This document shows, in pieces, positions 3 through 63,081 of a stretch of DNA of 64,000 nt. Each line of letters begins with the position of its first letter. The stretch's first letter is position 1. The stretch is taken from positions 29,807-93,806 of the IMG/VR virus record IMGVR_UViG_3300020410_000948. The stretch is one strand, 5' to 3'. Below the pieces are notes generated by a model. It saw nothing but the letters and a program-made list of their open reading frames with translations. It made no database searches and was not told the origin of the DNA. This stretch comes from a virus. The position numbers and the translations under genes are program-made.

Positions 3-278
3 CCTAATGGGTCGGCTAGCCTTGAGAGTTTTAGGTTCTTTGAGGCTGCAATGGCGGGTTGCGTAATAGTTAGTCAGCAAATGCCGGTTGTCCCGATGTA
101 CAATGTGGCTCCAACAATTACTGTAGATAATAATTGGACTAACCTTCCAGATGTTATAGATATGATTTTAGATAACAGGGAGGAGATGGAGTATTACTCA
201 CACGCAAGTAAAGTATGGTACGAATACTTCTGCTCTCCAGAAGGTCTAGCCGGCTACATGAAGAAAAGGCTGGTTTGA
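3..278 (+). CDS. C-terminal part of an exostosin/GT47-like glycosyltransferase (starts before the window)
   Basis: The frame is open from nt 3 and reads PNGSASLESFRFFEAAMAGCVIV, matching the exostosin PxG...R..EA...GC.P motif also seen in the next gene. Confidence 0.65.
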   Translation, partial: PNGSASLESFRFFEAAMAGCVIVSQQMPVVPMYNVAPTITVDNNWTNLPDVIDMILDNREEMEYYSHASKVWYEYFCSPEGLAGYMKKRLV

Positions 279-282
279 CTAT

Positions 283-1047
283 ATGGATTTTGTTGACGGA
301 GAAAGATTCCAGTCAATCTGTGACTTTGAACTTGGTCAAGAAATGCCTAAAAAATCGCAGTTGGTAATGTATGCGCCCTCGGAAAATTATCTAGAGGCGC
401 TAGTGTTCATTAAACAAAACACTGATACACAATTCAAGCTTGTAACACATAATGGCGATATCGAAATTTATTTAGATGACAGGGTTCTGCCTGATAACCT
501 TATACACTGGTATGCACAAAACCTGTGTACCAAATCGAATAAGATGTCTTCGCTTCCTATAGCGATGGAGAATACCCACTGGCATCCAACAAAGCGCCCA
601 GCAATGCTCTCTATAGAAAAGCAATCCGAAAGGTTTCTTAAGCCGTTCACTCAATTTAATCCCCGCACACATCCATCTAGGTTGGATCTAGTAAGATTGA
701 TACAGCAAGGAGAAATTGATGTTGATTTTGCTCCTTCAATTAATGGGACGGGGTTTGATCAATATGTATACAATCTATCTAAATACGCATTTTGTATTTG
801 CCCGAGGGGTAACGGCATTGATACTCATAGGATATGGGAAGCCTTACATATGGGCTGTGTGCCAATAGTAAAGAGGCATGTTACGCACGAATGTTTGTTA
901 GATTTGCCGGTCTTGTTCGTAGATGACTGGAGAGAAATAACTCATGAAAAGCTTGTGCAATTTATTGAACAAATACCCAACAATATATATAACATGCAGA
1001 AACTTTCTTTTTCCTACTGGGAGAATCTGATAAAAAATGACATCTAA
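283..1047 (+). CDS. Exostosin/GT47-like glycosyltransferase
   Basis: FCICPRGNGIDTHRIWEALHMGCVPIV motif. Confidence 0.75.
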   Translation: MDFVDGERFQSICDFELGQEMPKKSQLVMYAPSENYLEALVFIKQNTDTQFKLVTHNGDIEIYLDDRVLPDNLIHWYAQNLCTKSNKMSSLPIAMENTHWHPTKRPAMLSIEKQSERFLKPFTQFNPRTHPSRLDLVRLIQQGEIDVDFAPSINGTGFDQYVYNLSKYAFCICPRGNGIDTHRIWEALHMGCVPIVKRHVTHECLLDLPVLFVDDWREITHEKLVQFIEQIPNNIYNMQKLSFSYWENLIKNDI

Positions 1048-1927
1048 GTTGAGAATTAAATTTGATAACTTTTGGGGTGGGTTTCCCCTGTATGACAATA
1101 TAATAACAGTAGCTCTAAGTCTAAAACACGATGTAGAGATTGTTCAGCATGACCCAGATATTTTAGTGCATCAAGGCCAAACTTCCCACAAGCATGATGG
1201 CGCAATTACAATAGCTTGGTTTATAGAGTCTATGAATAGAATAGGGGAACCTGACTATAGTAAATGTGACTATTCTTTTAACAGTTGTAATCTTGATGAT
1301 GAGAGAAACTATAGGATTCCCTTTTGGTCTACACAAATAAACTGGAATGGGGCTCCTGCGCATGACCTTAATCGAGGACCAACATACTATATATCAATAG
1401 ACGAGTTATCTAATAGGCAGATAGCTAATAGAGACAGGTTGTGTTGCTCAGTAGCGTCTGGAACGCTTGGTAGGAGAGCAGAGTTTTATCCTTACATATC
1501 CTCAAGAATGGATGTAGCACATGGAGGAGACTTCCTAAGAAATACAACAGAGATGATTGAAAAGCCGGGAAACAGTGACTACTTAGAGAAGATAGAGTTT
1601 ATTTCTAAATTTAAATCGAACCTATGTTTTGAGAACGATGACAGACAAGGATACGTATGTGAGAAGATACTACATGCTTTTTATGCTGGTTGTCTGCCCA
1701 TATACTGGGGACCAGCAAATGTAGGTGAAGACTTCAATAAGAAAGCGTTTATTGATGTTAGTGATTTTGAGTCTAGCGAAGAGGCTGTTAATTATATACA
1801 CGATGTGCTTTTAAACGATACAAAATTATTAGAATATCTAGAGCAACCAGTATTTGAAAATGGACAGGTGCCATATCACTCAACACCGGAGTCACTATTA
1901 GAGTTCTTAGAGAAAAAGGGTATATAA
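1037..1927 (+). CDS. Alpha-1,3/4-fucosyltransferase-like protein (GT10)
   Basis: GT10 signature K.EFISKFKSNLCFEN...GYVCEKILHAFYAGCLPIYWG. Confidence 0.85.
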   Translation: MTSKLRIKFDNFWGGFPLYDNIITVALSLKHDVEIVQHDPDILVHQGQTSHKHDGAITIAWFIESMNRIGEPDYSKCDYSFNSCNLDDERNYRIPFWSTQINWNGAPAHDLNRGPTYYISIDELSNRQIANRDRLCCSVASGTLGRRAEFYPYISSRMDVAHGGDFLRNTTEMIEKPGNSDYLEKIEFISKFKSNLCFENDDRQGYVCEKILHAFYAGCLPIYWGPANVGEDFNKKAFIDVSDFESSEEAVNYIHDVLLNDTKLLEYLEQPVFENGQVPYHSTPESLLEFLEKKGI

Positions 1928-2502
1928 TGGCTGGAGAATTTTCTTACAACCGCAAAAAGTATTTTTTTCTTCATATCCCGAAGACTGGCGGTAAGATGTG
2001 GGAGCATGTATTTAGCGGTATTGGGCTGACTTCTGGACATGGTTTCGTAGAATCTAAACCAGAAGGATATTCATTTACTGTAATAAGAAACCCATTTGAT
2101 AGATTGGTCAGCTGTTTCTATTACCTCAAGGCTGGCGGGTGCTGGTCGGGTGACGCAAATGATGCGTTAAAGTATGATATTACAAACAATACTTTTGAAG
2201 ACTGGCTCAAGCTAGCTAGCAAAAACCCTCAGCACTATCTAGAACAGCAACACGTTATGCCTATGATGCGTAGGATTGGCAGAAAAGAACACTTCGATCA
2301 TATTGGATTGTTTGAAAATTTAGAACGGGAAACTAGAGATCTATATTCTATTATATATGGCCATAAAATTGATGAAGTGCCTGTGATTAACAAAAGCACC
2401 CATCGTCACTTTGAAGATTGTTACACCGAAGAAACAAAAGCTATAGTTTCAGAGCTATACAAGGATGATATAAAACTATATGAGGAGCTATTAAATGCAT
2501 AA
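1927..2502 (+). CDS. Carbohydrate sulfotransferase (Sulfotransfer_2-like)
   Basis: 5'-PSB motif FLHIPKTGG, 3'-PB motif FTVIRNPFDRLVS, C-terminal LYKDD. Confidence 0.85.
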   Translation: MAGEFSYNRKKYFFLHIPKTGGKMWEHVFSGIGLTSGHGFVESKPEGYSFTVIRNPFDRLVSCFYYLKAGGCWSGDANDALKYDITNNTFEDWLKLASKNPQHYLEQQHVMPMMRRIGRKEHFDHIGLFENLERETRDLYSIIYGHKIDEVPVINKSTHRHFEDCYTEETKAIVSELYKDDIKLYEELLNA

Positions 2503-2902
2503 GATATATAAAGACGAGAAGCTTTACCACTGCTACTTCAACGCCGACGAATACCAAGAGGGTAGGTTTGATGCTACCGACGCTGGAGAATATTTGCAGT
2601 GCGCTATTATAAATATGGATGACGGCAAGAAGTTTGATCCGCATGTCCATATCCCCTGTGAAAGAACAACTGACACAACTCAAGAGGCATGGGTTGTGCT
2701 TAAGGGCAAGATAAAAATAACATATTATGACGAAGATAAAAATCAAATGGATGAACCGGCTATAGTCTCTGCCGGAGGGTGTACTATAAGTTTTTGGGGT
2801 GGCCATAAATATGAATGCCTAGAAGACGGAACTGTAGTCTATGAATTTAAGACTGGTCCATACTTTGGTAAAGATGCGGATAAGGTGGTATTTGATGCGT
2901 AA
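2495..2902 (+). CDS. Cupin-fold protein (WbuC-like, sugar-cluster associated)
   Basis: PHVH...QEAWVVLKG and GGHKY...YEFKTGPY cupin metal-site motifs. Confidence 0.7.
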   Translation: MHKIYKDEKLYHCYFNADEYQEGRFDATDAGEYLQCAIINMDDGKKFDPHVHIPCERTTDTTQEAWVVLKGKIKITYYDEDKNQMDEPAIVSAGGCTISFWGGHKYECLEDGTVVYEFKTGPYFGKDADKVVFDA

Positions 2903-3539
2903 TATTGTACAATATAGTCTGCCTCGAACAGGCTCTACACTTATCTGTAGGGTGTTAGATAGTCTGTTCCCTGAAGAGCTGGAAAACCTTGCACAACATC
3001 CTCCGCTCCATTATAACTCCCGTGACGCTTTGATTGTGAGCTCCTGTAGGTATCCGCTGGATGTTCTGGTATCGTATGCTAGAGTACACCACTGTGAACA
3101 AGGTTATGAGCTCGGTGGGATTGATGAGGATTTACTTGCACATCATGCAAAAAGGATAAAAACACTATATCAATGGTATTTTAAAGACTTAGACCATCAT
3201 AGGGGTCACATTCTACAAATCAAATATGAAAAATTTTGGAACAACTATGATTATATTTTCGATAACCTTGAGACCTTTTTTTCAATAGAGATTGATGATA
3301 ATAAAAGACATGATATAACACAAGAATGTGGAATAGAAAACTCCAGAAAGATACAGGCAGAATTGGTTGGTGAAGAAGGAACAGAGGACTTTGGTTGTGT
3401 TGATCAAAAGACATCTCTGCACGGCAACCATATATTTGCGCCAGAGCCATTTGGCTACAAAAAAGTTTTAACACGCACGCAAACAGCTTCTATGAAAATG
3501 TTTTTAAAGGACGCTATTAAAGAATGGGAAAAAATATGA
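2895..3539 (+). CDS. Sulfotransferase-domain protein
   Basis: YSLPRTGSTL PAPS loop, RYPLDVLVS, IKYEKF. Start moved to ATG 2895, which overlaps the end of the cupin gene. Confidence 0.75.
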   Translation: MRNIVQYSLPRTGSTLICRVLDSLFPEELENLAQHPPLHYNSRDALIVSSCRYPLDVLVSYARVHHCEQGYELGGIDEDLLAHHAKRIKTLYQWYFKDLDHHRGHILQIKYEKFWNNYDYIFDNLETFFSIEIDDNKRHDITQECGIENSRKIQAELVGEEGTEDFGCVDQKTSLHGNHIFAPEPFGYKKVLTRTQTASMKMFLKDAIKEWEKI

Positions 3540-4087
3540 GGCTTCACTTAGGATGTGGATGGAGAAATTTTGGAGGTGACTGGATTCATGTTGATGGTGG
3601 TGATTATGAACACTTAGACCACAATGATATTACTAAGCTTCCATACGAAGATGAAACAGTTGATTTAATATATGCCTCTCATGTGTTGGAGTACTTCGAT
3701 AGAGAAGAAGCTGTTGACATTCTTACTGAATGGACGAGAGTATTGAAAAAGGGTGGAGTATTAAGAATAGCTGTGCCAGATTTTGAGTCTATGGCTATTA
3801 TGTATGTAATGGGCAAGAATACTCTTGATAATACAAAATTAAGTAACTTTCTCGGCCCGCTTTACGGTAAGATGCAGATGGGTGATGATATTATTTATCA
3901 CAAAACAGTCTATGACTTTGAAGAGCTATCAACGCTTTTATCATCTGCAGGAATACAAAACATTGCTAGATATGATTGGAGAGATACGGAGCATCATAAC
4001 TTCGATGACCACTCTCAAGCCTATATCCCGCATATGGATAAAGACAATGGAACACTAATTAGTTTGAATATAGAGGGAACAAAATGA
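3536..4087 (+). CDS. Class I SAM-dependent methyltransferase (type 11-like)
   Basis: LHLGCG motif I, DLIYASHVLEY, RVLKKGGVLRIAVPD; ATGA overlap at 3536. Confidence 0.85.
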   Translation: MRLHLGCGWRNFGGDWIHVDGGDYEHLDHNDITKLPYEDETVDLIYASHVLEYFDREEAVDILTEWTRVLKKGGVLRIAVPDFESMAIMYVMGKNTLDNTKLSNFLGPLYGKMQMGDDIIYHKTVYDFEELSTLLSSAGIQNIARYDWRDTEHHNFDDHSQAYIPHMDKDNGTLISLNIEGTK

Positions 4088-4668
4088 GATTAGAGAAATG
4101 GGAAGGCGTACATATAGATACGGTTTATAATGATGTAGTTACTAAGATAGCGCCTAAAGGCAAGGTTCTAGGCGTTGGAGATAGTGCATTTCCTCATGCT
4201 GTTCTAAACATGCAATATTTTCATGACAATCCAGTAGAAGAAGGCGTTGCGGTTAATACTAACGAAAAGGATTTAGGACATCTAAATGGGTTTGATGTTA
4301 TACTATGTAACGGCAATGATATCTGCTATGAAGACAATTACTTTGACTTTGTATACACTGTGATGATGCTTGAGCATGATCCTAAGTTCTGGCTGTCAGT
4401 ACAAGAGATGCACAGAGTTTTGAAGCCCGGATGCCCTTTAATGATAGCTATTCCCGGATTTGTAGGAGAGCCAGAGTACGCTGTTGTAGACAATAGAGAC
4501 CATTGGGGACATGGCACTAGTTGTTATGAGAACCATACCGACTGTGACTGCTATAGATTTAGTCCCGATTTCTTTAAGTTTTTCGCGCTCAAAGACTTCG
4601 ATGATGCTGTCGTGTATCACAGTATGTTTCCTCCAAGACTTATAGGAGTTGGATATAAACCTAAATGA
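4084..4668 (+). CDS. Class I SAM-dependent methyltransferase
   Basis: YEDNYFDFV...LEHD...EMHRVLKPG motifs. Confidence 0.8.
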   Translation: MRLEKWEGVHIDTVYNDVVTKIAPKGKVLGVGDSAFPHAVLNMQYFHDNPVEEGVAVNTNEKDLGHLNGFDVILCNGNDICYEDNYFDFVYTVMMLEHDPKFWLSVQEMHRVLKPGCPLMIAIPGFVGEPEYAVVDNRDHWGHGTSCYENHTDCDCYRFSPDFFKFFALKDFDDAVVYHSMFPPRLIGVGYKPK

Positions 4669-5270
4669 GCACAATACCTGATGTAAAACTACTTGAACAG
4701 AAAGTGGCTAAATTTTTTGGCGCTCCTTATGGAGTAGCTGTAGATTGCTGCACTCATGGCGTTGAGTTATGTTTGAGATACGTAAAAGCCAAGCAAGTAG
4801 AATCTCCCCATAGAACTTATCCTTCTATTCCATTCTTGGCTCGTAAACTAAATATCCCTTTGGTTTGGAGAGAAGAAGACTGGCAAGATTATTACCAAGC
4901 AGGCGTGGGCGAATCAGGAGAAGTGGTTTATGACGCTGCGGTTCTATGGAAAGAGAATAGCTATATACCAGACAGCTTCATGTCACTGAGTTTTCAGTTT
5001 CAAAAACATCTAAGTCTCGGTCGTGGAGGTATGATACTTACCGACAATGAAGAAGCAGCAAAACAACTAAGAAGAATGGTTCACGACGGAAGAAAACCTT
5101 TTATTCCTTGGCGCGAGCAGAACATAGACTGTGAAGGATACCATTACTATATGACGCCAGAAACAGCTGCTTTAGGTCTACAAAAACTTCCTGAAGCAAT
5201 TAATAGAGAACCTAGACAGTGGGTCATTGAAGACTGGCCCGACTTAAGAAACATGGAGATTTTTAAATGA
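4665..5270 (+). CDS. Short DegT/DnrJ/EryC1/StrS PLP-dependent sugar aminotransferase
   Basis: GVAVDCCTHG, YDAA, SLSFQFQKHLSLGRGGMILTD (PLP lysine present); only 201 aa. Confidence 0.8.
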   Translation: MSTIPDVKLLEQKVAKFFGAPYGVAVDCCTHGVELCLRYVKAKQVESPHRTYPSIPFLARKLNIPLVWREEDWQDYYQAGVGESGEVVYDAAVLWKENSYIPDSFMSLSFQFQKHLSLGRGGMILTDNEEAAKQLRRMVHDGRKPFIPWREQNIDCEGYHYYMTPETAALGLQKLPEAINREPRQWVIEDWPDLRNMEIFK

Positions 5271-6241
5271 GAAAAGTTGCATTAATAACAGGTATTTCTG
5301 GACAAGATGGAAGTTACCTTGCGGAACACCTGTTAAATCAAGACTATAAAGTTTATGGAATTATCCGTAGGCAATCCGTAGCAGAAAACCAAGAGTCTAG
5401 GATAGATCATATTATAGATCATGTAGAAACCCGCTATGGAGATCTGATGGACTGGTGTTCGTTGGAAAGAGTTGTTAGGGAATGTAATCCCACTCATATT
5501 TTTAATTTAGGAGCGATGAGCCACGTTAGAGTTAGTTCCGACGTACCATCCTTTACTATTAAAACCAACGCAGAAGGTGTTCTAAACTTATTAGAAGTCT
5601 ACAAAAATTATTGTCCCGAAGCTAAATTTTATCAAGCAAGCTCGTCTGAGATGTTTGGGAACAGCGTCGATGATGATGGATTCCAAAGAGAGACGACGCC
5701 AATGACTCCTGTCAGCCCTTATGGTTGCTCAAAGCTTATGGGGTATTCCTTAGTTAGGCATTATCGACACGCTTATGGTCTGCATGCTAGTAATGGTATA
5801 TTATTTAATCACGAGTCTCCACGAAGAGGCTCTAACTTTGTTACAAATAAAGTTGTAAAGACAGCGGTAGAGATTTCTTTAGGTATGAGAGATAAACTCT
5901 TCTTAGGCAATATGGATTCTTACAGGGATTGGGGACATTCCAAAGACTACACAAGAGCTATGATTGATATTATTAATCATGACACTGCTGATGATTTTGT
6001 AGTGGCTACAGGAGAAACACACTCAGTACGAGAACTATGTGAGGTAGTGTTTAACTGCTTAGACATGGACTATAATGATTACGTTGAACAAGACCCTAGA
6101 TTTATGCGTCCAGAAGAATTGAAATACCTGAAAGGCGACCCAACAAAGACAAGAGAGACTTTCGGATGGAAGCCAGAATACACCTTCCAATCCATGATGG
6201 AAGAAATGGTTAGACATTGGCAAGACTTCTATAGCAAATAA
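5267..6241 (+). CDS. gmd: GDP-mannose 4,6-dehydratase (copy 1)
   Basis: ALITGISGQDGSYL, YQASSSEMFG, SPYGCSK (YxxxK), GILFNHESPRRG, RDWGH. Confidence 0.95.
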   Translation: MRKVALITGISGQDGSYLAEHLLNQDYKVYGIIRRQSVAENQESRIDHIIDHVETRYGDLMDWCSLERVVRECNPTHIFNLGAMSHVRVSSDVPSFTIKTNAEGVLNLLEVYKNYCPEAKFYQASSSEMFGNSVDDDGFQRETTPMTPVSPYGCSKLMGYSLVRHYRHAYGLHASNGILFNHESPRRGSNFVTNKVVKTAVEISLGMRDKLFLGNMDSYRDWGHSKDYTRAMIDIINHDTADDFVVATGETHSVRELCEVVFNCLDMDYNDYVEQDPRFMRPEELKYLKGDPTKTRETFGWKPEYTFQSMMEEMVRHWQDFYSK

Positions 6242-6242
6242 A

Positions 6243-6938
6243 ATGTATAAGACCTATGTAATGCACTATAGCCCTCTCTGTGAAAGGAGAGGGTTTATTC
6301 TCAATCAACTATCTTCTGCTGGAATTAGCCAATTCGAGTTAGTCACAGAATTCGATAGAGAAGATCTGACACATGAAGATCTTTCTAGATACAATGATGA
6401 CCCAGACTTTCACCGTCAGGTTTGTGAAATATCAAGACAGCCACATGGGTTTGCGGGACTGACGCCATACACATATCAAAAAATGACACTGGCGTCAATA
6501 TCTTTAAATCTAAAACACCTAGAATCTTTCAATAGGTTCATCAATCAAGAAGTAGAATTTGCATTATTTTTAGAAGATGACTGTAGTTTTTATGGGCATC
6601 CTTTCGATATAAATGATATAATTAATAGGGCACCGCATGATTGGGACGTAATATTACTAGGTGGAGCATTTGATCATGGGATCATAACTCCTTTAGCAGT
6701 ATATGGCGACATGGATAAGGGCTATATATTAGCCTCACATCCTGCCACTAACACTACATCATCAATAATTTATAATAAACAGAGTGCTAAAAAAATAGTT
6801 CCATATTTGGAAACCTTTTGTGTTCCTATTGATTGGCAGCTAAACTATGCTTTTCACGAAGCTAAATTAAAAGTGTACCATGTATATCCTTATATATGTG
6901 GTCAGGGTACATTTAGGAGTACAGCAAAAGATGAATAA
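6243..6938 (+). CDS. Glycosyltransferase family 25-like
   Basis: ER at the N-terminus, H...ALFLEDD, WDVILLG, PIDWQL. Confidence 0.75.
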   Translation: MYKTYVMHYSPLCERRGFILNQLSSAGISQFELVTEFDREDLTHEDLSRYNDDPDFHRQVCEISRQPHGFAGLTPYTYQKMTLASISLNLKHLESFNRFINQEVEFALFLEDDCSFYGHPFDINDIINRAPHDWDVILLGGAFDHGIITPLAVYGDMDKGYILASHPATNTTSSIIYNKQSAKKIVPYLETFCVPIDWQLNYAFHEAKLKVYHVYPYICGQGTFRSTAKDE

Positions 6939-7404
6939 ACAATCAAAGAACCTAGCGGTTTTAACAGAGGACTTGGGCTTGTCTCAGAGGTCTTTTTATC
7001 TCATAGATAACCTTAATAAGTTCTGTAGAGATAGGAGTGCTGCGGTGACTTGTTATACAACCTCAGTAATCCCTCCGGTTATGAAGGCTCTTTTTCCTTT
7101 TATGAATCAGTATTACTTCTCGTCTTTTAATGGTACTGCTATAGCTACCAGTATAGACACAGCTAAAGCACTGATTAAGACAAAGAACAATACTAAGAGA
7201 TTCCTTTACTTATGGGACTTAGAATGGATTAGAAAGCCTGTAGACTTTGATGATACCTGTTCTGTGTTGAGGAATCCAGATATTAATATAATTACTAGAA
7301 GTGAGTCTCATAAAAAAATGGTTGAAAACTATGCGAATACTACAGTGTGTGGTATAGTTGACGACTGGGATATGGCACAATTGGAGGAGTTGATATGGAA
7401 TTAG
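6931..7404 (+). CDS. Hypothetical protein resembling the N-terminal half of a GT-B glycosyltransferase
   Basis: AIATSIDTA...RFLYLWDLEW resembles the IAT.W.TA...Y..QD.E segment of WsaF-like GT4 enzymes; AGGAG upstream of ATG 6931. Confidence 0.45.
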   Translation: MNKQSKNLAVLTEDLGLSQRSFYLIDNLNKFCRDRSAAVTCYTTSVIPPVMKALFPFMNQYYFSSFNGTAIATSIDTAKALIKTKNNTKRFLYLWDLEWIRKPVDFDDTCSVLRNPDINIITRSESHKKMVENYANTTVCGIVDDWDMAQLEELIWN

Positions 7405-8165
7405 AAAAGATTATCAATATGTATGTTGAGGATGGCATGAGCACCAAAGCTATTGCCGAAGAGTTTGGTACTTACCCTAATAAGATCCGACGAGCACTTG
7501 TTTCTTCCGGAGTTGAATTGCGTAGTAAAAGCGCAGCACAAAAGAAAGCCTTAGAAAATGGACGAGCCAAACATCCCACTAAAGGCAAGAAAAGAAGCGA
7601 GGAAGAGAAAGATAAGATCAGTGCTTCCCTAGAAAAGTCTTGGTCAAATGTAACCAAGAAAGAGCGCAGTAGAAGATCTCAAATGGCCAAAGATCAATGG
7701 GAGAATATGCCTGAAGCAGATAAGCTGGCACTAAGAAAGAAAGCCGCAGAAGCGTTATTGATGACAGTGAAGCATGGCTCCAACCCAGAAAAGCTACTGT
7801 ATGAAAAATTAACTGAGGCTGGCTATGAGGTTGAGCTTCATAAAAAAGATATGATTGAGGGTAAGAAGTACGAGATGGATCTGTATTTGCCTGAATTATC
7901 TACGGTTATAGAGGTCGATGGGCCTCAACATTTTAAGCCACTTTTTGGAGAAAAGGGGTTGCGAGAATATGTTAAACATGATATAATTAAGAACGGAATA
8001 CTCCTTAAAAGGGGTTATTGTGTAATTAGAGTGAAGTATTTGTGCAGCAACTATAGTCGTGCTGTCGGAAGAAGATTGTGGGAGCTTGTTGAGCCTGTTG
8101 TAAATAGGGTTAACAAAAAGTTTCCCACTAAGGAAAACAGGTTAATTGAATTGGAGATAACATAA
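7395..8165 (+). CDS. Putative homing endonuclease: HTH + basic NUMOD3-like segment + Vsr/DUF559-like nuclease
   Basis: N-terminal HTH (STKAIAEEFG), KGKKRSEEEKDKIS, DLYL...VIEVDGPQHF, GYCVIRV. Confidence 0.7.
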   Translation: MELEKIINMYVEDGMSTKAIAEEFGTYPNKIRRALVSSGVELRSKSAAQKKALENGRAKHPTKGKKRSEEEKDKISASLEKSWSNVTKKERSRRSQMAKDQWENMPEADKLALRKKAAEALLMTVKHGSNPEKLLYEKLTEAGYEVELHKKDMIEGKKYEMDLYLPELSTVIEVDGPQHFKPLFGEKGLREYVKHDIIKNGILLKRGYCVIRVKYLCSNYSRAVGRRLWELVEPVVNRVNKKFPTKENRLIELEIT

Positions 8166-8938
8166 TGCCAGAAGTTGAATTAGACATTTTTGATGTTGAC
8201 AGTATTGATGAAGAAAACCTACTTGAAGAAGATTCACAAGAGTCTCAAGTGCCCCCATATGGTACAAAAGAATGGAACGAATATGTTATGGGACATTTTC
8301 GTAAAGATGAACTGATTGATGGAAATCCTATCTGTGCTGGTCTTAGACGTGTAGCTAACTTATTGTTAGGTGACATTCTAGAGTCTGGTCCAGATCAAGT
8401 TTTTCCAGCGACTGAGGGGAATGGTCCCGGCAGAGCTACTGTTGTTTACCAAGTTGTTATCAACTGGTTTAATAGTGGCCAAGCTAGGATATTTAAAGAA
8501 GTTGCGGATGTGTGGCATGGGAATACAGATGATTTATTCTGTGCTCATCCTGTGGCTACAGCAAGCACTAGGGCAGAAGGACGAGCTTTGCGTAAGGCTT
8601 TAGGTTTACGATGTCTAGCCGCTGAAGAATTGGCAAGAAAAGATATTGTATCTATTGTACAGCAGAGTGTAAAAAAGGATAACCCCACCGATGGAGCGTG
8701 GGACGAGGCAGCTATGATTAGCTCCTCACAGATCAATTTTATTGATAATAAGTGTAGACAGTTAGATATTAATGTTTTGGCATTTGTCAACTCTGGAGAG
8801 GGTGTTTACGAGTCCATTGAGGATGTAGAAAAAAGTAAAGCCTCTGCAATGCTTGGTGTGCTAAACAAATATCAAACTAAACAAAACGAGGTGCCAGAAG
8901 GCATCGTGGGTTATAACAAGAATTGGAGAAATGCATAA
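8165..8938 (+). CDS. Conserved phage protein, possibly a Rad52/Sak-like ssDNA annealase
   Basis: HPVATASTRAEGRALRKALGL helix motif and C-terminal S..Q..FI segment; acidic N-terminus. Confidence 0.5.
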   Translation: MPEVELDIFDVDSIDEENLLEEDSQESQVPPYGTKEWNEYVMGHFRKDELIDGNPICAGLRRVANLLLGDILESGPDQVFPATEGNGPGRATVVYQVVINWFNSGQARIFKEVADVWHGNTDDLFCAHPVATASTRAEGRALRKALGLRCLAAEELARKDIVSIVQQSVKKDNPTDGAWDEAAMISSSQINFIDNKCRQLDINVLAFVNSGEGVYESIEDVEKSKASAMLGVLNKYQTKQNEVPEGIVGYNKNWRNA

Positions 8939-9267
8939 TGAAAGTTAACTACAATGCAGGTAAACTAAACGTCGCTTTTGAAGGCGAAACCGTCCGTGAA
9001 CTATGGAAGCAGATCGCTGTCTTCCAAGAAGTGTTTGGTGAAACCAAATGCGGAAAGTGTGGCTCAGAAAACCTTAGATTCGTCGTGAGAGAAAACGACG
9101 GAAATGAATACTATGAGCTTCGCTGTATGGACTGTGGAGCTAAGTTGTCGTTTGGCGCCAACAAGAAGGGTGGCGGACTGTTCCCTAAACGTAAGGATGC
9201 CGATGGAAATTGGCTACCTGACGGCGGGTGGCAGAAATGGAACCCAAAAACAAAGTCCCTTGAATAA
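8938..9267 (+). CDS. Zn-ribbon protein
   Basis: CGKCG...CMDCG; TAATG coupling to the previous gene. Confidence 0.65.
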   Translation: MKVNYNAGKLNVAFEGETVRELWKQIAVFQEVFGETKCGKCGSENLRFVVRENDGNEYYELRCMDCGAKLSFGANKKGGGLFPKRKDADGNWLPDGGWQKWNPKTKSLE

Positions 9268-47612: not shown

Positions 47613-48113
47613 TTAATCTTCGATAGCCAAAGCGCCTTTGACTGTGATATTTGGATTTGTCGCATCAAACACGGAAAAATCTACACTATAATTTTCAATA
47701 TCATCTAAAGTGGTTTCTGACTCAAGTGCGGCCTCTGAGGAAATAACCAAAGAAACGACCGTCTTTACCCAAGTGAGAAGTTGATTAATATAATTAAGTC
47801 TGTTCGTCAGTCCTGTGTTTCTAGCCTCTTCAGCGAGTGCTATAAAAAGTTCTCTCCTAAAAGATGGGTAGTATACCTCTATGTAAGAGTTTGCCTGCTG
47901 AGATATAGTATTATTCTTATGCTCTCTAGCCGGCTGAAGCAGATAAGCCTCAAGGTTAGACATGTAGGTAGCAAGTGCGGCCTCTAAGTCTTCTTGCGAA
48001 ACGCCATCTACTTGAATTCCTCCATCCCTATATAGAGTAGAAGACATACTACCACCTGCTATAGCAACTATAGAGGATAAGTTTTGTTCTGGTGAAACTT
48101 CTACAAAAGCCAT
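47613..48113 (-). CDS. Hypothetical protein, possibly a fibre assembly chaperone
   Basis: Coupled downstream of the fibre-like gene; helical C-terminus. Confidence 0.45.
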   Translation of the reverse strand: MAFVEVSPEQNLSSIVAIAGGSMSSTLYRDGGIQVDGVSQEDLEAALATYMSNLEAYLLQPAREHKNNTISQQANSYIEVYYPSFRRELFIALAEEARNTGLTNRLNYINQLLTWVKTVVSLVISSEAALESETTLDDIENYSVDFSVFDATNPNITVKGALAIED

Positions 48114-49705
48114 TATCTAATCTCCTCAACTTCTAAAAACGGTTTTCCACCATTGTTTGCAACGAGAGTCACTTCACTACTTCCGTCATCTTGGTAGGTA
48201 TATAATGTAATAACATCATCGACAGCACAGTCCCTTATAAAGCTTGTTTGTGGAGCAGGCCTCTTGTCATAATCAGAGCTCATTGTCCAGTTAGCCGCAG
48301 TCCCAATTTTGTAATAATCAAGAGCACCTCCATCCGGCGTTATTCCAATCATAACAACTGCAGCCGAGCAGCAATTGTCCAAGCTAACATACTTGATATA
48401 CCCAGTTATTCTGTAAAGACCAGCCCTTTTAATTACTATTTTATTATTGCTATGGTCTGCATCAGCACCTCGCTCAATAGTATCTTCATCAAAAGTGACT
48501 TGTGTTAAAGTTTTATTTGCTATTGTTTGCTGACTAGTTTGAGTGATCGTAGCAACATGAGGCTTGATACCCTTAGCCACTTCTGCCCATATATAATCAT
48601 TGGCCACAGAAGGGTTTCTCATGCACTGCAGCTCGACAAAATCGCCATACAAAAATAACTTCATTGTAGAACTAAGCGTTCCTGCTTCGGTTACAAAGTC
48701 AGTTGCGCCAGAAGAAATCGTCAGAGCGTTTGCGTCATTCGTCATCTTTTTGATCAAGTATCTAAGACCCAAATACGTTGCTCCTGCAGTAGGCAAGGTC
48801 AAAGTCCAAGCAGCAGACGTGTCACAAAGAATTGTTGAGTCATTATCATCAGCTGTGTAAGTTCCGCTTTTTATAACGTAGTCTGCGCCCTCCATCCTTG
48901 AAGGCGAACCACAAAAAACAGTAGATGTGCCAGTTAGAGTTATACCCGCATTTGAATTGCTTGAGGAAATTATTGTAGATCTAGTTAGAGTGTCACTACC
49001 CGAAGTCGGGTCGGTTACAAGACCAATGCCAACTTCCCAATTGTTACCACTCTCAATAACATAGTAAGTATAATTTCCACCTCCTACTCCTGCTGCGAAA
49101 GTTTGGTAGCCATCTTCTGCACCGGCAAGAGTTATTGTAGTATTATCGCCATAAGCACCTGTATCGGTCGTGGTCTCTTTGACTCTATCTCCAACTTTGA
49201 AATCATAGTTGTTTGAAGCGTCCGGAGTTTCAAACCAAGCTTCAGAAACAAGGTTAGTTTCACTGGCACTACCGCCACTAGCTCTAACAAACCTAATCCT
49301 TAGATCACTATAGTCAGTGATAGCATTAGCTTCAGACGAACTTAGAGTAAAGCTGTAATCAGCAAAGGAGGTAGTTAGCGAAGAATTGGTGGCCGTAGCT
49401 ATTTCCGTGCTAGTGCCTTGGCGTAGGGATACCGTCAGGCTTGGTATTCCATAAGAGCCCGATGGATCACTACCCTTTGCTCTGTATCTAACTATATGGC
49501 TACTAGAACTTTGAGGGTCGCTAATATCACTTAATCCAACCTCCATAGTGTCAGACGAACTAGAGCTATCCGTAGAGATAACATAGTCACTGTCATTCTC
49601 TCCGTCAGCCTCGTCTATACTCTGGAATAAGTTACTACCGCTTCCGGCTTGGTTTACCCATGAGCCGGCTGATACATCTGAATCTGGTCTTGCGTATTGA
49701 GTCAT
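48113..49705 (-). CDS. Mosaic fibre/appendage protein
   Basis: VGDRVKETTT...WEVGIG...TLTRST domain, KSGTYTA...TLTLPTA segment, C1q/TNF-like C-terminus (IKRAGLYRITG). Confidence 0.6.
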   Translation of the reverse strand: MTQYARPDSDVSAGSWVNQAGSGSNLFQSIDEADGENDSDYVISTDSSSSSDTMEVGLSDISDPQSSSSHIVRYRAKGSDPSGSYGIPSLTVSLRQGTSTEIATATNSSLTTSFADYSFTLSSSEANAITDYSDLRIRFVRASGGSASETNLVSEAWFETPDASNNYDFKVGDRVKETTTDTGAYGDNTTITLAGAEDGYQTFAAGVGGGNYTYYVIESGNNWEVGIGLVTDPTSGSDTLTRSTIISSSNSNAGITLTGTSTVFCGSPSRMEGADYVIKSGTYTADDNDSTILCDTSAAWTLTLPTAGATYLGLRYLIKKMTNDANALTISSGATDFVTEAGTLSSTMKLFLYGDFVELQCMRNPSVANDYIWAEVAKGIKPHVATITQTSQQTIANKTLTQVTFDEDTIERGADADHSNNKIVIKRAGLYRITGYIKYVSLDNCCSAAVVMIGITPDGGALDYYKIGTAANWTMSSDYDKRPAPQTSFIRDCAVDDVITLYTYQDDGSSEVTLVANNGGKPFLEVEEIR

Positions 49706-49721: not shown

Positions 49722-50168
49722 TTAACTTTCGGTTATTTTAATCTTAAAACCTGTAAGGGTTAATGTTGCTCCATCTGAAACTGCCTGTGTGCTTCCTAAG
49801 TCCCAGTAGCACAAAACATTGTTACTTGCATGACCACCGCTACCGCCGGCATCATCTGTTATAATTGCATATCTAGCATTTGCTATTGCTGAACCGCTGG
49901 CAGTCCATGCGCAGTCTGGCACTGTGATTTGCCCAAAGTTGCTGCTATCATCTTCAGAGATAAGGAAGCCTGTGCCTCTAGCCTTGGTTAATTCTCCATA
50001 ACTGCCACCAGTAGATTCGGCTGAACTTACATCACTAAACGTGTTTGTGTCGTCACTAAGGCTCGCTGAACTTGTTAGGAGGTGAACATAAAAATTAGTA
50101 GGCTCATCTTGAGCCCTGAAAGCCATAGACAAAATAATCTTTTTGCCTCTATTTGTCATTCCTGCCAT
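49722..50168 (-). CDS. Small virion structural protein
   Basis: 148 aa; MTNRGK...W.ASG..I..ARYAII.D pattern. Confidence 0.55.
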   Translation of the reverse strand: MAGMTNRGKKIILSMAFRAQDEPTNFYVHLLTSSASLSDDTNTFSDVSSAESTGGSYGELTKARGTGFLISEDDSSNFGQITVPDCAWTASGSAIANARYAIITDDAGGSGGHASNNVLCYWDLGSTQAVSDGATLTLTGFKIKITES

Positions 50169-58786: not shown

Positions 58787-59036
58787 CTATCAGTCCTAAC
58801 AAATAAGCCTCGTAATGCCCCTCATTACCCGTTACTTCCTTGTGACAGTTATAACATAGGGTTATGCCATTGTTTACATCAAACCTCAAAGAAGAAGCGC
58901 TAGCCCATTTTCTAATGTGGTGAACGTATAGCTTTTTCTTTTTGCCGCCCGTCTTACACATCTTACAAGTAAACTTATCTCGCTTCAAGACATCCATCCG
59001 AAACTTCTTGTAAGCTGGATCGTCGTAATTCCTCAT
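58779..59036 (-). CDS. Small HNH endonuclease
   Basis: VLKRD..CKMC...HHI...NGITLCYNCH. Confidence 0.85.
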   Translation of the reverse strand: MRNYDDPAYKKFRMDVLKRDKFTCKMCKTGGKKKKLYVHHIRKWASASSLRFDVNNGITLCYNCHKEVTGNEGHYEAYLLGLIDG

Positions 59037-60021
59037 CTATATCTGCCTCCGTCATTAATTCTGCTAGTCTTCTGAATTTGATTTGTGGTTCCCATCCGAG
59101 CTCTTCTCTTGCTTTGGTCGGGTTACCAAGTAAGTAATCAACTTCAGCGGGTCTAAAGAATTCAGGGTCAATGTACACGTACTCATTCCAATTGTCAATG
59201 CCAGCGTACCCAAAAGAGCATTCCAAAAACTCCTCAACACTGTGTGTTTCTCCAGTAGCGATGACATAATCGTCTGGTTCTTCTTGTTGCAGCATGAGCC
59301 ACATTCCTCGTACATAGTCTTTTGCATGTCCCCAATCTCTCCTTGCTTGTAGGTTTCCAAGTCTTAGTTTTGGGAAATTCTCATCTTTCCCAGAAGCAAC
59401 AAATTTTCCAATCCATTTTGTTATTTTTCGCGTGACGAAGTTTTCTCCTCGTCGCTCGCTCTCATGGTTGAACAGAATCCCGCTAGAAGCATGAATTCCA
59501 TAGCTGTCTCTATAATTTCTTACCAAGTGATGTGCTGCAAGTTTTGCAATCGCGTAAGGCGACTGGGGCATAAAAGCCGTGTTTTCGTCTTGATATTTTC
59601 CACTACTTGTTACGGTAAAGTTTTTGCCAAACATTTCACTGGAAGAAGCCTGATAAAATCTTATTTCGTTACATCTAGGAGAAACTCTGATCGCTTCCAA
59701 TATATTTAGGCATCCGCCAGCAGTAACATCCCAAGTTAGTGTCGGTTGTTTAAAAGATGTCCCAACGTGAGACTGAGCAGCAAGATTGTAAACTTCATCT
59801 GGCTCATACTTATTAATAATGTCAGAGACACAAAATCCATCGGTAATGTCTCCCTCTACCAAAACAAAGTTTTCGTTTTTCTGATGTTCGCCAATTCTTT
59901 CCGTTGTGTCCACGCTACTTCTTCTAGCAACGCCAACTACTTTATAATTTTTAGATATTAGCAAGTCAGTTAAATAACTTCCGTCTTGGCCGGTAACTCC
60001 AAATACAATCGCTGTCTTCAT
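58975..60021 (-). CDS. gmd: GDP-mannose 4,6-dehydratase (copy 2)
   Basis: GVTGQDGSYL, NLAAQSHV, YQASSSEMFG, SPYAIAK, GILFNHES, RDWGHA, FRPAEVDYL; start ATG 60021. Confidence 0.95.
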   Translation of the reverse strand: MKTAIVFGVTGQDGSYLTDLLISKNYKVVGVARRSSVDTTERIGEHQKNENFVLVEGDITDGFCVSDIINKYEPDEVYNLAAQSHVGTSFKQPTLTWDVTAGGCLNILEAIRVSPRCNEIRFYQASSSEMFGKNFTVTSSGKYQDENTAFMPQSPYAIAKLAAHHLVRNYRDSYGIHASSGILFNHESERRGENFVTRKITKWIGKFVASGKDENFPKLRLGNLQARRDWGHAKDYVRGMWLMLQQEEPDDYVIATGETHSVEEFLECSFGYAGIDNWNEYVYIDPEFFRPAEVDYLLGNPTKAREELGWEPQIKFRRLAELMTEADIDEELRRSSLQEVSDGCLEAR

Positions 60022-60022
60022 A

Positions 60023-60838
60023 TTATTCACCTTTAAAAGTATCACTTGTTAGAAACGGTTGGTCTACTTGACCATCTTCATATTTAATGTATTCTGATAA
60101 ACGCTCTTTCTCTGCTGCTGTGGCTAGTCGCATTTTTTCCATCTCTACACCTATCTGGGTTCTGAAAGTAGGATCTGATGCAATCTTTTTCACCAATGAC
60201 GCAAACGTTAACTTAGAATCTTCGATAGCCTTGATTCTTTGTTCCCTAGTACCCTTCAGGTCCTTGAGCATTGTTGCTTTTCGTGCTTGAAGATCCTTAT
60301 AATCCTTAGATAGCGTCTCTTGCGCTGCTCTTTGCATAGCCACTTGCCGCTCTAAGGACGAGATGTAGTCACGGTCCTGATCTTCTTTATCTCTTTGTTT
60401 CTCGGCTATGATGAGAGCCTGAACGCCCTCAATATCTTCTAGATTTTCTTGTTGTGTCGTCAAGATCCTATTCATTAGAATCTCAAGCTTAATTGTATCC
60501 ACGATTTGGATTTCTTCTGTGTGAAACACATCGTCTTTGAACTGCGCCCACATTTTTGTAAAGTGGAACTGAAAAAGCTCTAATTCGGAACTTGAGAACT
60601 GAGTCAAAAGCTCCTTAAAGTATGGCTTACTTTTAAGTTCCTGATGAGCCTCGATTTCTCTCTTCTGACTTTTAGATAAGCCGACATTCGTTTCGATCCA
60701 GCTTTTAACCGAGGATACATTCCTACCTAACTGATCCGCTATGTGCTCAGGAGAAAGAGCCTCGCAATTCTGCTCGATAAATTCAATTTCATCTACTGAG
60801 AACCGCCCCTTCTTTTTGTCTTTGCTAGTTTCAGACAT
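60023..60838 (-). CDS. HTH/Myb-like DNA-binding coiled-coil protein (candidate small terminase)
   Basis: KKGRFSVDEIEFI...IADQLGRNVSSV N-terminus followed by a long coiled coil; upstream of terL in the same operon. Confidence 0.45.
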   Translation of the reverse strand: MSETSKDKKKGRFSVDEIEFIEQNCEALSPEHIADQLGRNVSSVKSWIETNVGLSKSQKREIEAHQELKSKPYFKELLTQFSSSELELFQFHFTKMWAQFKDDVFHTEEIQIVDTIKLEILMNRILTTQQENLEDIEGVQALIIAEKQRDKEDQDRDYISSLERQVAMQRAAQETLSKDYKDLQARKATMLKDLKGTREQRIKAIEDSKLTFASLVKKIASDPTFRTQIGVEMEKMRLATAAEKERLSEYIKYEDGQVDQPFLTSDTFKGE

Positions 60839-60840
60839 AT

Positions 60841-61344
60841 TTACTCCCCATCAACAATCTTTTTAATTATGCTCTCTATTTCAAGCCTTCTCTTTTTAGA
60901 TATAGATACACCAGAACACAATCTGAGATAATCAGCCCTCATGTTTGCTGGTATGTTGTTTTTTACTAGCTCTTTTATTTCTAGATCGGAGATTCTGGAC
61001 AAGATATCCTGATCCTCTCTCATTATACTAAAGTTTTCGATACTGTGTGCTTCAAGAAGGTTCTTCTTCCTCCTCTGGACATTTTCTGCCTTGCCTTCGT
61101 CCTGCCGGTAGTAATTGTCTCTCTTAAAGTTCTTGAGTCTGTTGGCTATATGTACAAACAAAAAGTTTTCTAGTGGTCTGGACTCATTATATCTTTCAAG
61201 AGCTTCCATGCCTATGATAAAAGCCTCCTGCTTAATATCTTCTACCGAATAAAACGCAAACGTATATTTATTGGACAGTTTATCAGCGACTTTAGTAATA
61301 GTATCAACAACTTCCTGTTCTGACATATTACTAGGTATTTTCAT
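60841..61344 (-). CDS. Short phage sigma factor (region-2-type)
   Basis: EDIKQEAFI.GMEALERY...PLENFL..HIANRLKNF.R resembles sigma70 region 2; 167 aa. Confidence 0.7.
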   Translation of the reverse strand: MKIPSNMSEQEVVDTITKVADKLSNKYTFAFYSVEDIKQEAFIIGMEALERYNESRPLENFLFVHIANRLKNFKRDNYYRQDEGKAENVQRRKKNLLEAHSIENFSIMREDQDILSRISDLEIKELVKNNIPANMRADYLRLCSGVSISKKRRLEIESIIKKIVDGE

Positions 61345-61698: not shown

Positions 61699-63081
61699 AT
61701 GCATATAACGGAATTAACTAATAAATTGATTAAAGAACTACGTGAATATATTGAGGTCAACTCTGAGGGTCATGTTATAACAAAGAAAATAAGATTTAGT
61801 CCTCTTCAGACGAGGGGAAGAGCTGTTGTCGGTAAAAGGAGAGGAGGTAAGACAAAATATGGTTACACTTTTAATTTTAACTTTCCAGATATCGGAGAAA
61901 GTATTGCTTGTAAAGCGAGAGAAGTTATTTGGGTTCTGAATAATGGTGTATATGATCCAAAGTATAAGGTGTCTTGTAAAAATGGAGACGTATTTGATGA
62001 TAGAATAGACAACTTGTATCTTGAGAAGAGAAAGAATGGGCGACCAGCTGGATCAAAGGATAAGAAGAAGAGGCAACGGAGAGATACACTGAATGCAAAA
62101 CAAGAAAAGAAGGTAGTTGAACTAAGAAAGTGCGGATTAGCCGTGTATCAAATAGCAGAAAAAATGGAAACCACGACTGATGTTATCAAATATGCGTTAA
62201 AGAGGGCGGTAGGGGCAAAAAAAGTTAAGCCTTTCTTTAATGCAGGGACTATTAAAGAGCCGATAAGTAAGGGCGGGTGCCAAGTGGGGGTATATGCTTT
62301 GTTGGCTTCGTCCTTAGATGGGAAAAATTCAATAAGTAAAGCTTATATTGGTTCATCTAGAAGAACTTGGTCTAGAATTCAGGGTCATTTTAACATGTTA
62401 AGAAAAAATAAACATTATAATACAGAAATGCAGACCGCATACAACTCTGGAAATTACAAATTTGCTGCATTTTGGTTAGAGAGGGGCGATTTTGAGCATG
62501 GGCTAGAGCTGGAGTTGGAAACGGAGCATATAAATAAGTATGAAAACGCTTCATTGTTTAACACATGGTCGCAACCAAGCCTTGAGGAGGTTCGGCCATA
62601 TTTAGATAAGTGTAAACATTACCTAGATGATGAAAGTAGGTACACTGTAGATGAGAACGGATGCTGGAATTGGAACAAACTTCACCCAGCAGGCTATGGA
62701 AAAGACATTCAGTGCAGTATTAAGGGCAAGATTAAGCACATAAAACCTCACAGGTTAAGCTACTACAAGACCTACGGCGAATATCCAGAGCTTATCCGCC
62801 ATATGTGTGACAACAAAGCGTGTGTCAACCCGAAGTGTCTTAAAAAGGGAAGCCATCAACAGAACGGATTAGACAAAAGTAGAGAATTTAGGAAAGAGTT
62901 CGAGTACTGGTGGTTTCATTATGGGGGAAATGGTATAAAATTGACAGAACACTTTGGGTGGAAACCGGATAGAGAACACCCTTGGTCCAATGCTGTATAC
63001 GAATGGGAAAGGAAATTGGGTCTAAGAGAGAAATATAAGCATCTCTATACACGTAGGCTCGACTCGAAACGATCAAGATGA
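61699..63081 (+). CDS. Multi-domain homing-type endonuclease (degenerate HNH, HTH, GIY-YIG, HNH)
   Basis: KNGDVFDDRIDNL; GRPAGSKDKKKR; GVYAL...YIGSS; CWNW...HRLSY...RHMCDNKACVNP. Confidence 0.75.
   Translation: MHITELTNKLIKELREYIEVNSEGHVITKKIRFSPLQTRGRAVVGKRRGGKTKYGYTFNFNFPDIGESIACKAREVIWVLNNGVYDPKYKVSCKNGDVFDDRIDNLYLEKRKNGRPAGSKDKKKRQRRDTLNAKQEKKVVELRKCGLAVYQIAEKMETTTDVIKYALKRAVGAKKVKPFFNAGTIKEPISKGGCQVGVYALLASSLDGKNSISKAYIGSSRRTWSRIQGHFNMLRKNKHYNTEMQTAYNSGNYKFAAFWLERGDFEHGLELELETEHINKYENASLFNTWSQPSLEEVRPYLDKCKHYLDDESRYTVDENGCWNWNKLHPAGYGKDIQCSIKGKIKHIKPHRLSYYKTYGEYPELIRHMCDNKACVNPKCLKKGSHQQNGLDKSREFRKEFEYWWFHYGGNGIKLTEHFGWKPDREHPWSNAVYEWERKLGLREKYKHLYTRRLDSKRSR

Follow-up and report, generated by a model that had tools for sequence, protein, structure and literature searches.

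What does a marine tailed phage do with a long run of genes for making and decorating a sugar chain, and to what would that chain be attached? The question is raised by the first 7,404 nucleotides of a 64,000-nt stretch of viral DNA (the window), which corresponds to bases 29,807-93,806 of the 93.8-kb IMG/VR record IMGVR_UViG_3300020410_000948 (61% complete by the CheckV estimate). A first-pass annotation, made from the letters of the window, had read this part as twelve contiguous, mostly overlapping genes of a glycan operon that continues upstream. All twelve open reading frames (ORFs) are indeed present on the plus strand, overlapping their neighbours by 1-16 nt or separated from them by no more than 4 nt; in two places the overlap seems to be about 60 nt, but comes down to 8 nt if translation really starts at the internal ATGs at 2895 and 6931. 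The ORFs are co-directional and translationally coupled. The operon does continue, for a further 10,818 nt upstream of the window: the complete glycan locus has 23 genes in 18.2 kb, begins at L003:3988 directly after a sigma-factor gene, ends at window position 7404 and takes up about 12.5% of a genome of about 145 kb. What had been overlooked is that the twelve flagged genes (g13 to g24) are the hypervariable middle of a lineage-wide locus. The gene content supports a genetic capacity for a fucosylated, methylated and sulfated glycan.

The phage encodes on its minus strand a terminase, a portal, a ClpP-like prohead protease, a major capsid protein and a 2,404-aa tape measure, together with several further proteins of more than 1,000 aa. 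The plus strand upstream of the locus carries genes for PhoH, RecA, DnaB, a primase, a deoxynucleoside monophosphate (dNMP) kinase, a split DnaE, a single-stranded DNA-binding protein (SSB) and the sigma factor. More than 597 IMG/VR relatives have a capsid protein at least 79% identical, on contigs of up to about 145-160 kb. Searches by tblastn with the capsid protein and terminase found no cultured relative, the best matches being Bacillus phages at about 25% identity. Several marine metagenome studies, dated 2014 to 2025, contain DNA almost identical to that of the flagged genes, and no RNA run is listed among the public runs that carry it. The phage belongs to an abundant, globally recurring marine lineage of siphophages of about 145 kb.

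We gathered 75 loci of this lineage, all from marine phage contigs, by means of a conserved downstream gene. The locus lies at the same genomic place in three large relatives. The genes g24-g26 are present in 73-75 of the 75 loci, and g24, the universal 3' end of the locus, in every one of them; the 10 kb upstream of these genes hold 169 different protein clusters. A conserved set, g02, g06, g08 and g24 (two zinc-ribbon glycosyltransferases, a nucleotidyltransferase and a half GT-B protein), flanks the hypervariable middle, and we call it the primer set. In distant members the locus is reduced to the sigma gene, g02 (a zinc-ribbon GT4), g06 (a zinc-ribbon GT-A), a small variable gene X, g08, c17 and g24. 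Closer members have an extra core (two GT4, a GT2, a CgeB-like glycosyltransferase, Fcl and g11), followed by the variable middle, where some carry a formyltransferase with a full-length DegT, FkbM methyltransferases, cupins, and WavE-like or GT25 genes in place of the flagged genes. Sulfotransferases occur in two unrelated cassette types, together in 6 of the 75 loci; type 1 is found in the studied phage and five relatives, and type 2, with a Sulfotransfer_2 family, in three further loci. Wherever relatives have the GT10 gene and sulfotransferase A, the first GDP-mannose 4,6-dehydratase (Gmd) gene, the mini-DegT gene and the cupin gene accompany them.

The variable genes are exchanged as blocks. 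From about 794 to 4670 of the window, that is, from GT10 to the second methyltransferase, the DNA is 90-100% identical to that of one relative whose backbone DNA is 75-88% identical, and the identity breaks sharply after this block. Judged from these alignments, the GT10-sulfotransferase-methyltransferase block moved recently between phages about 80% identical. The flagged genes are under purifying selection: the ratio of nonsynonymous to synonymous substitution rates (dN/dS) is 0.05-0.1 against a relative 78-95% identical, wherever dS is unsaturated. Such variation of gene content fits a surface-exposed product under diversifying selection, and the best explanation of the flagged genes is that they are the exchangeable, serotype-like half of the locus.

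Which chemistry do these genes encode? The closest link to a characterised enzyme comes from g14 (283-1047; this and the following positions refer to the plus strand of the window), whose product is a predicted GT114 glycosyltransferase like A075L of the chlorovirus PBCV-1. Residues 53-249 of its 254 align with residues 69-276 of the 282 of A075L (PDB 8q8i, 8avq and 8asa; E=4e-25). The equivalents of Asp73, Arg158, Asn202 and Arg208 of A075L are kept, D59 being the Asp of the HSD motif, and PRGNGIDTHR is conserved. A075L is a beta-xylosyltransferase of the cytosol whose target is O4 of the fucose in the N-glycan of the PBCV-1 capsid; it was reassigned from GT47 and founded the CAZy family GT114 (PMC11571054). 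The g14 product also matches the Pfam family RXYLT1_C with 33.2 bits (cut-off 27). The neighbouring g13, of which only the 3' end (1-278) lies in the window and whose start is 561 nt upstream at L003:14245, encodes a 279-aa exostosin-like GT-B protein found in 24 of the 75 loci; its match to exostosin-1 in the PDB has E=0.17, and its Glyco_trans_1_2 score (21.5 bits) is under the cut-off. Both g13 and g14 had been called GT47-like. This assignment was rejected for both, as their Exostosin_GT47 scores, 16.1 and 27.4 bits, respectively, fall below the gathering score of 33.4. The likeness that had been drawn between GT47 plus sulfotransferases and eukaryotic, heparan-type synthesis gives way with it, the better homologue being the chlorovirus A075L. 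Another A075L/GT114-like gene of the phage (L002:5365-6330), the third of this kind, stands alone beside recA in the replication module and is 33% identical to g14 over the donor-binding part.

The gene g15 (1037-1927) bears out the predicted GT10 fucosyltransferase of the alpha-1,3/4 type. Both Pfam domains exceed their cut-offs (Glyco_transf_10, 51.2 bits, E=1.5e-13, cut-off 23.9; FucT_N, 30.5 bits, E=5e-7, cut-off 27.2), the protein matches Helicobacter pylori FucT (2nzw) with E=7e-21, and dN/dS is 0.09. The R of the donor motif, with which the aligned block opens, and its EK pair are retained; in the H. pylori enzyme, these are presumably R195, E249 and K250. The donor is probably GDP-fucose, or could be another GDP-6-deoxyhexose.

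The two different sulfotransferases proposed earlier, which would use 3'-phosphoadenosine 5'-phosphosulfate (PAPS), hold up by family scores and by motifs; we sought a 5'-phosphosulfate loop resembling P-K/R-x-G-x-T/S and a 3'-phosphate motif R-x-P-x-x-R/V-x-x-S. Sulfotransferase A, encoded by g16 (1927-2502), is of the Sulfotransfer_2 family (50.9 bits, E=3e-13, cut-off 22; PHROG 3347, E=8e-17), has both motifs (HIPKTGG and RNPFDRLVS) and a dN/dS of 0.06. Sulfotransferase B, encoded by g18 (2841-3539, the probable true start being the ATG at 2895), is Sulfotransfer_3/1-like: it scores 29.2 bits for Sulfotransfer_3 (cut-off 27) and 19.8 for Sulfotransfer_1 (under 22), and has PRTGST and RYPLDVLVS. 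Homologues of it were found in just two relatives, L004/L186 and L009. Searches of PDB sequences with g16 and g18 gave nothing significant, and the assignment is by Pfam and motifs. The two predicted sulfotransferases are mutually unrelated. Between them lies g17 (2495-2902), the anticipated cupin, which is of the WbuC family with 42 bits for NCBIfam TIGR04366, exactly the cut-off, and which invariably accompanies g16 in relatives.

Two putative class-I methyltransferases dependent on S-adenosylmethionine (SAM) follow, in agreement with the earlier reading: g19 (3524-4087; Methyltransf_11, E=5e-11; motif I LHLGCG; dN/dS 0.045) and g20 (4084-4668; Methyltransf_11, E=2.5e-8), for which a homologue was found solely in the closest relative, at 100% identity. 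The DegT call for g21 (4665-5270) stands for the family and for the pyridoxal phosphate (PLP) lysine, which aligns with that of perosamine synthetase 3bn1. However, the protein is half-size (201 aa): its match to DegT_DnrJ_EryC1 (E=1.4e-15) covers only profile positions 165-236 of 360, and it misses the full fold-type-I architecture of about 360 aa, with a large and a C-terminal domain, the latter being absent. Relatives have g21 homologues of equal length and 67-84% identity, and because this size is retained with low dN, g21 is not a pseudogene. DNA of the mini-DegT and Gmd genes (window 4693-5169 and 5630-6221) has 66-69% matches in the 'huge phage' records LR756502 and LR756511 of 595-642 kb; thus, the half-size DegT is not confined to this phage lineage.

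The earlier assignment of g22 (5267-6241) as a Gmd gene holds, with 366 bits in Pfam, E=1e-85 to Gmd structures in the PDB, and the catalytic S-x-E and YxxxK retained. A second, divergent copy lies on the minus strand (58975-60045), flanked by packaging and head genes, and shares 45% identity with g22 and 84.5% with its counterpart in the relative G003; it matches TIGR01472 with E=8e-123. For this NCBIfam model, g22 scores 354 bits and the second copy 410 bits, both below the equivalog cut-off of 415. The inspection of upstream genes for fcl, suggested in the first-pass annotation, leads to a predicted GDP-L-fucose synthase (Fcl; L003:11587-12546), which aligns over its full length with 1bsv (E=1.7e-71), including the catalytic Ser/Cys, YxxxK and His, and scores 308 bits for NF047922, under the equivalog cut-off of 500. 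By sequence, the GDP-L-fucose route is complete in the phage, with two Gmd copies and Fcl.

The last two flagged genes are g23 and g24. The GT25 call for g23 (6243-6938; dN/dS 0.10) is weak: the Glyco_transf_25 score of 17.9 bits is under the Pfam cut-off of 24, and what survives is a GT25-like, putative GT-A glycosyltransferase with E=4e-10 to PHROG 2835 (glucosyltransferase). The half GT-B protein is well founded. The product of g24 (6931-7404, the ORF being open from 6880) is predicted to be a stand-alone N-terminal Rossmann half of a GT4-type GT-B enzyme; its AlphaFold2 model from an alignment of 52 sequences (pLDDT 93.4) matches 6eji first in an exhaustive VIA search (Z 16.9, rmsd 2.2 A, 149 aligned residues), followed by BshA, WaaB and TarM. 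Foldseek against the PDB gave weak E-values only.

The upstream half of the locus encodes, in order, a 555-aa zinc-ribbon GT4, two further GT4, a 140-aa protein of unknown function, a 282-aa zinc-ribbon GT-A, a GT2, an NTP_transf_3 nucleotidyltransferase, a CgeB-like glycosyltransferase, Fcl, a 305-aa protein of unknown function and a GT32. The 282-aa protein has a GT-A fold behind a four-cysteine zinc ribbon, and matches of g06 in BFVD are generic viral GT-A proteins. Weak leads from the ESM Atlas are a GT2-like protein for g11 (0.94) and a small methyltransferase for g05 (0.90-0.91). By sequence or fold, the locus has about twelve glycosyltransferase-like proteins: three GT4, a GT2, the zinc-ribbon GT-A, and the CgeB-like, GT32, GT10, GT114, exostosin-like, GT25-like and half GT-B proteins.

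What the phage does not encode is also informative. The cluster proteins have no transmembrane helix, the maximum 19-residue hydropathy being below 1.5 in every one, and the locus is predicted to encode soluble enzymes only. The earlier remark that no flippase or polymerase is visible in the window can be extended to the upstream genes, to the whole record and to the 94%-complete relative G003: apart from the tape measure, no protein in the record or in G003 has more than four transmembrane or hydrophobic segments, and because there is no such multi-segment protein, there is no wzx flippase, wzy polymerase, initiating phosphoglycosyl transferase or ABC permease. Upstream wzx and wzy genes had been proposed as the mark of an ordinary O-antigen conversion, and neither was found in the 23-gene locus. 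Likewise, no PAPS synthase or adenosine 5'-phosphosulfate (APS) kinase is encoded by the phage; four candidate host genomes have 2-3 APS kinase genes each.

The main clue to the host is the first gene of the record, a DUF1501 gene (L002:3-854). A 98.6% identical copy sits inside G003, where three paralogues are also present (100052-100900 and 104568-108876; four in all), so the gene is phage-borne. Its cellular relatives, at 64-81% identity, are almost all from metagenome-assembled genomes (MAGs) of Pirellulaceae or other Planctomycetota, the single top match being labelled SAR202, and the closest cellular loci have a GC content of 43-47%, compared with 40% for the phage. A marine planctomycete is the likely host. 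A search of five candidate host MAGs found no GT10, and homologues are present in 16 of the 301 Planctomycetota genomes sampled, all distant (at most 34% identity); a recent capture of GT10 from the host was rejected on these grounds.

In the mechanism that we propose, the phage Gmd and Fcl would convert host GDP-mannose into GDP-fucose, and the enzymes of the locus would further draw on GDP-mannose, UDP-sugars, SAM and PAPS of the host. The primer set (g02, g06, g08 and g24) would start the glycan on a conserved acceptor, and the variable cassette would extend, methylate and sulfate the primed glycan. The extension may consist of fucose, or a related GDP-6-deoxyhexose, added by GT10, a GT114 step on this fucose, O-methylation and sulfation. 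A second GDP-6-deoxyhexose may be the product of the first Gmd, the mini-DegT and the cupin, since these always travel with GT10 and sulfotransferase A. The acceptor would be a virion protein. As in chloroviruses, mimiviruses and mycobacteriophages, it would receive its glycan in the cytoplasm, either ahead of assembly or while assembly proceeds, and the particles would thereby gain a strain-specific coat. The parts of this proposal are not equally secure. We have little doubt that the locus builds a complex glycan. The glycan probably contains fucose, and sulfation also seems likely, if slightly less so. Its place on virion proteins, as a strain-specific coat added in the cytoplasm, is our preferred reading by analogy, and we put it forward tentatively.

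The virion acceptor is favoured because the machinery is wholly cytoplasmic and self-contained, and because the one characterised close homologue, A075L, modifies the glycan of a viral capsid. Giant viruses, furthermore, coat their particles by means of clade-specific clusters, some with sulfate enzymes (PMC9614988), and one Gmd gene of the phage lies in the head module, also in G003, which is a hint about timing. That a lytic-looking phage spends about 12.5% of its genome on a hypervariable product also points to a product that belongs to the particle.

Several observations weigh against a virion acceptor, which rests on analogy. The locus lies between replication genes (DnaE, SSB and sigma) and a conserved trio, on the strand opposite to the structural block, and the late-promoter-like motif of that block, TGTGTAT(A/T), was not found before it. 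The capsid protein has no Ser/Thr-rich tail, no acceptor motif was found, and ten structural-module proteins, including Ser/Thr-rich head-proximal ones, match no Pfam family. Because the glycosyltransferases acting on undecaprenyl-linked intermediates are soluble or peripheral as well, the missing transmembrane helices are compatible with a host-surface product. The substrates of the sulfotransferases, moreover, cannot be read from the sequence, and the authors who described the pelagiphage islands favoured modification of the host O-chain (PMC7029224). Two proteins encoded on the minus strand just downstream of the capsid gene (49722-50168 and 48113-49705) have a Ser+Thr content of 24%, which rises to 47-53% in patches; both are candidate glycan acceptors and may serve to decorate the head.

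The main rival is a remodelling of the host surface, in which the enzymes would extend or decorate a lipid-linked glycan of the host (LPS O-chain, capsule, holdfast or envelope glycoprotein) at the cytoplasmic face, and a flippase or exporter of the host would carry the product out, for example to block superinfection or to prevent re-adsorption of progeny to lysed cells. GT4, GT2, GT25, GT32 and WbuC, as well as the WavE of relatives, are families typical of O-antigen or lipopolysaccharide (LPS) loci, the conserved flanks and variable middle resemble bacterial O-antigen loci, expression is predicted to be with the replication-module genes instead of the structural genes, and published interpretations of cyanophage and pelagiphage clusters agree (PMC7029224, PMC9602691). 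However, four related genomes yielded no initiating transferase, flippase, polymerase or ligase, nor any other polytopic membrane protein, unlike known seroconverting phages, and no integrase is present in the annotated parts, in which no systematic search for one was made. GT10 is no copy of a host surface pathway, given its distant and sparse matches among Planctomycetota, and the conserved primer module with two zinc-ribbon glycosyltransferases suggests an acceptor defined by the phage. We regard a host-surface acceptor as rather unlikely, but as the most probable of the alternatives. Less probable still is a soluble or released product, such as a free sulfated oligosaccharide or glycolipid, or the glycosylation of cytoplasmic host proteins, which would serve as a signal, as a decoy or in host takeover. 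All of the enzymes are soluble, and bacteria do make sulfated, fucosylated and methylated oligosaccharides with soluble enzymes, Nod factors with NodH and NodZ being an example; GT32/TcdA-like and SunS-like folds, furthermore, include enzymes that modify proteins or peptides. On this explanation, however, a backbone synthase, an acyltransferase and an exporter are missing, and the combination of lineage-wide conservation with extreme cassette turnover is hard to explain.

A third possibility is that the zinc-ribbon glycosyltransferases attach sugars to modified bases of the phage DNA as a protection against restriction, with the cassette diversifying the DNA glycan. The locus lies among DNA-metabolism genes, a dNMP kinase of the T4 gp1 type is encoded, zinc ribbons could bind nucleic acid, and phage glycosyltransferase clusters can place mono- to trisaccharides on 5-hydroxymethylcytosine (10.1101/2023.12.21.572611). 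Nevertheless, four related genomes have neither a ThyS-like hydroxymethylase (PF00303) nor a C5 cytosine methyltransferase (PF00145), as judged by searches in which the positive controls worked; Tet/JBP (PF12851) had no match in the phage genomes, nor in any control genome. Intact DNA-modification pathways are usually clustered (Pyle et al.), which counts against this explanation, and about twelve glycosyltransferases with sulfation and methylation go far beyond known DNA glycans. Furthermore, CCWGG has no site in the 93.8-kb record, where about 91 are expected, and none in the 145 kb of G003, where about 134 are expected, whereas CCSGG, CCGG, GGCC and GCGC occur at expected levels. This suggests a strong avoidance of the EcoRII/Dcm-type restriction site, which would be needless if the cytosines were bulkily modified. 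DNA glycosylation is thus unlikely, and we consider it the least probable of the explanations.

The preferred reading, a coat on the virion, leaves room for a further idea, already raised in the first-pass annotation, that the glycan acts as bait for fucan-eating bacteria. A sulfated, methylated, fucose-rich and fucoidan-like particle coat would mimic the algal polysaccharides on which its planctomycete hosts forage, the polysaccharide-capture apparatus of the host would pull the phage in, and swaps of the cassette would retune the targets. The idea is coherent because the host is probably a planctomycete, and planctomycetes are regarded as specialists for sulfated polysaccharides (PMC12673574). 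It is nevertheless pure speculation, and we give it only a slim chance.

Some neighbouring genes may be recorded here. One of two small genes for ECF-like sigma factors (L003:3505-3984) is always directly upstream of the glycan locus, including its minimal versions; the other is on the minus strand of the window (60841-61344). Right after the locus, three lineage-universal genes (window 7395-9267, plus strand) mark the 3' border and encode a helix-turn-helix/RAP-like protein of 256 aa, a protein of 257 aa (g26), highly conserved in a central motif, and a zinc-ribbon protein; g26 had no PDB sequence match and no Pfam match, and may resemble a Rad52-type annealing protein. The split dnaE spans L002:14133 to L003:3151, its two halves being separated by a 73-aa ORF and a gene for an RNase T-type exonuclease. 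A gene for a 460-aa HNH/homing-endonuclease-like protein (61699-63081) stands alone on the plus strand at the end of the structural block.

Among giant viruses, glycan factories encoded by the virus are an established fact, and we know of phage-encoded ones being shown only in mycobacteriophages. Marine phages have been known to carry large 'LPS-like' islands since 2005, and to our knowledge a function has never been assigned to them. The present locus offers a clean system for this problem, with a conserved primer and a swappable cassette, soluble enzymes that should be expressible, and, for one enzyme, a characterised homologue that modifies the glycan of a viral capsid. Should the glycan sit on the particle, protein sequence would greatly understate the diversity of surface chemistry among ocean phages, and likewise that of their adsorption, aggregation, grazing and sinking behaviour. 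Should it sit on the host, this would be a new kind of surface conversion by a lytic phage, one that needs no membrane components of its own.

How does the locus compare with known systems? The capsid N-glycan machinery of PBCV-1 is alike in its virus-encoded soluble cytosolic enzymes, its own GDP-fucose route (Gmd and GMER) and an A075L-type glycosyltransferase with the same catalytic residues (PMC11571054, PMC9614988); the methylated, fucose-centred glycan chemistry and proteins with glycosyltransferase and methyltransferase functions are further likenesses. However, PBCV-1 is a eukaryotic giant virus with scattered genes and with the capsid shown to be the acceptor, whereas the present system belongs to a tailed phage and is one tight 23-gene operon with sulfotransferases and GT10. 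The fibril-glycosylation clusters of Megavirinae (Mimivirus, Moumouvirus australiensis and Cotonvirus) have 9-21 genes, are clade-specific and specify bacterial-type sugars; some include sulfate-metabolism enzymes, and the glycan decorates the particle (PMC9614988). They differ in sugars of the viosamine, bacillosamine and QuiNAc types, in per-gene promoters and in amoeba hosts, and a primer-plus-cassette layout has not been demonstrated for them (PMC9614988).

Among phages, the island of the cyanophage S-SCSM1 has Gmd, Fcl, three fucosyltransferases and five glycosyltransferases (PMC9602691), and the host recognition cluster of pelagiphages and cyanophages is likewise a hypervariable, glycosyltransferase-rich island of marine tailed phages (PMC7029224). 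These islands are carried by T4-like myophages of cyanobacteria or SAR11 and adjoin tail-fibre genes, and sulfotransferases and GT114 are not reported in them; the present locus, in contrast, belongs to a siphophage lineage of about 145 kb with a conserved primer module. In mycobacteriophages, soluble glycosyltransferases of the phage glycosylate its own capsid and tail-tube subunits, according to the account of Freeman et al. 2023 in PMC12619734. That system is shown experimentally; as far as this account goes, it differs in having few genes, which lie beside structural genes, with glycans on C-terminal tails and neither sugar-nucleotide synthesis nor sulfation. The locus studied here is outside the structural module, and only the second Gmd is in the packaging module. 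Bacterial O-antigen and capsule loci share with it the conserved flanks, the cassette-like centre, the enzyme families and the horizontal exchange of cassettes, but the phage locus has no initiating phosphoglycosyl transferase, Wzx, Wzy, Wzz or ABC transporter and nothing embedded in the membrane. We found no description of a sulfated phage glycan in the literature searched. Compared with all of these systems, what is new in the present locus is the predicted sulfotransferases, the link to GT114, the architecture of a primer plus a cassette, the documented transfer of a cassette, and the likely planctomycete host.

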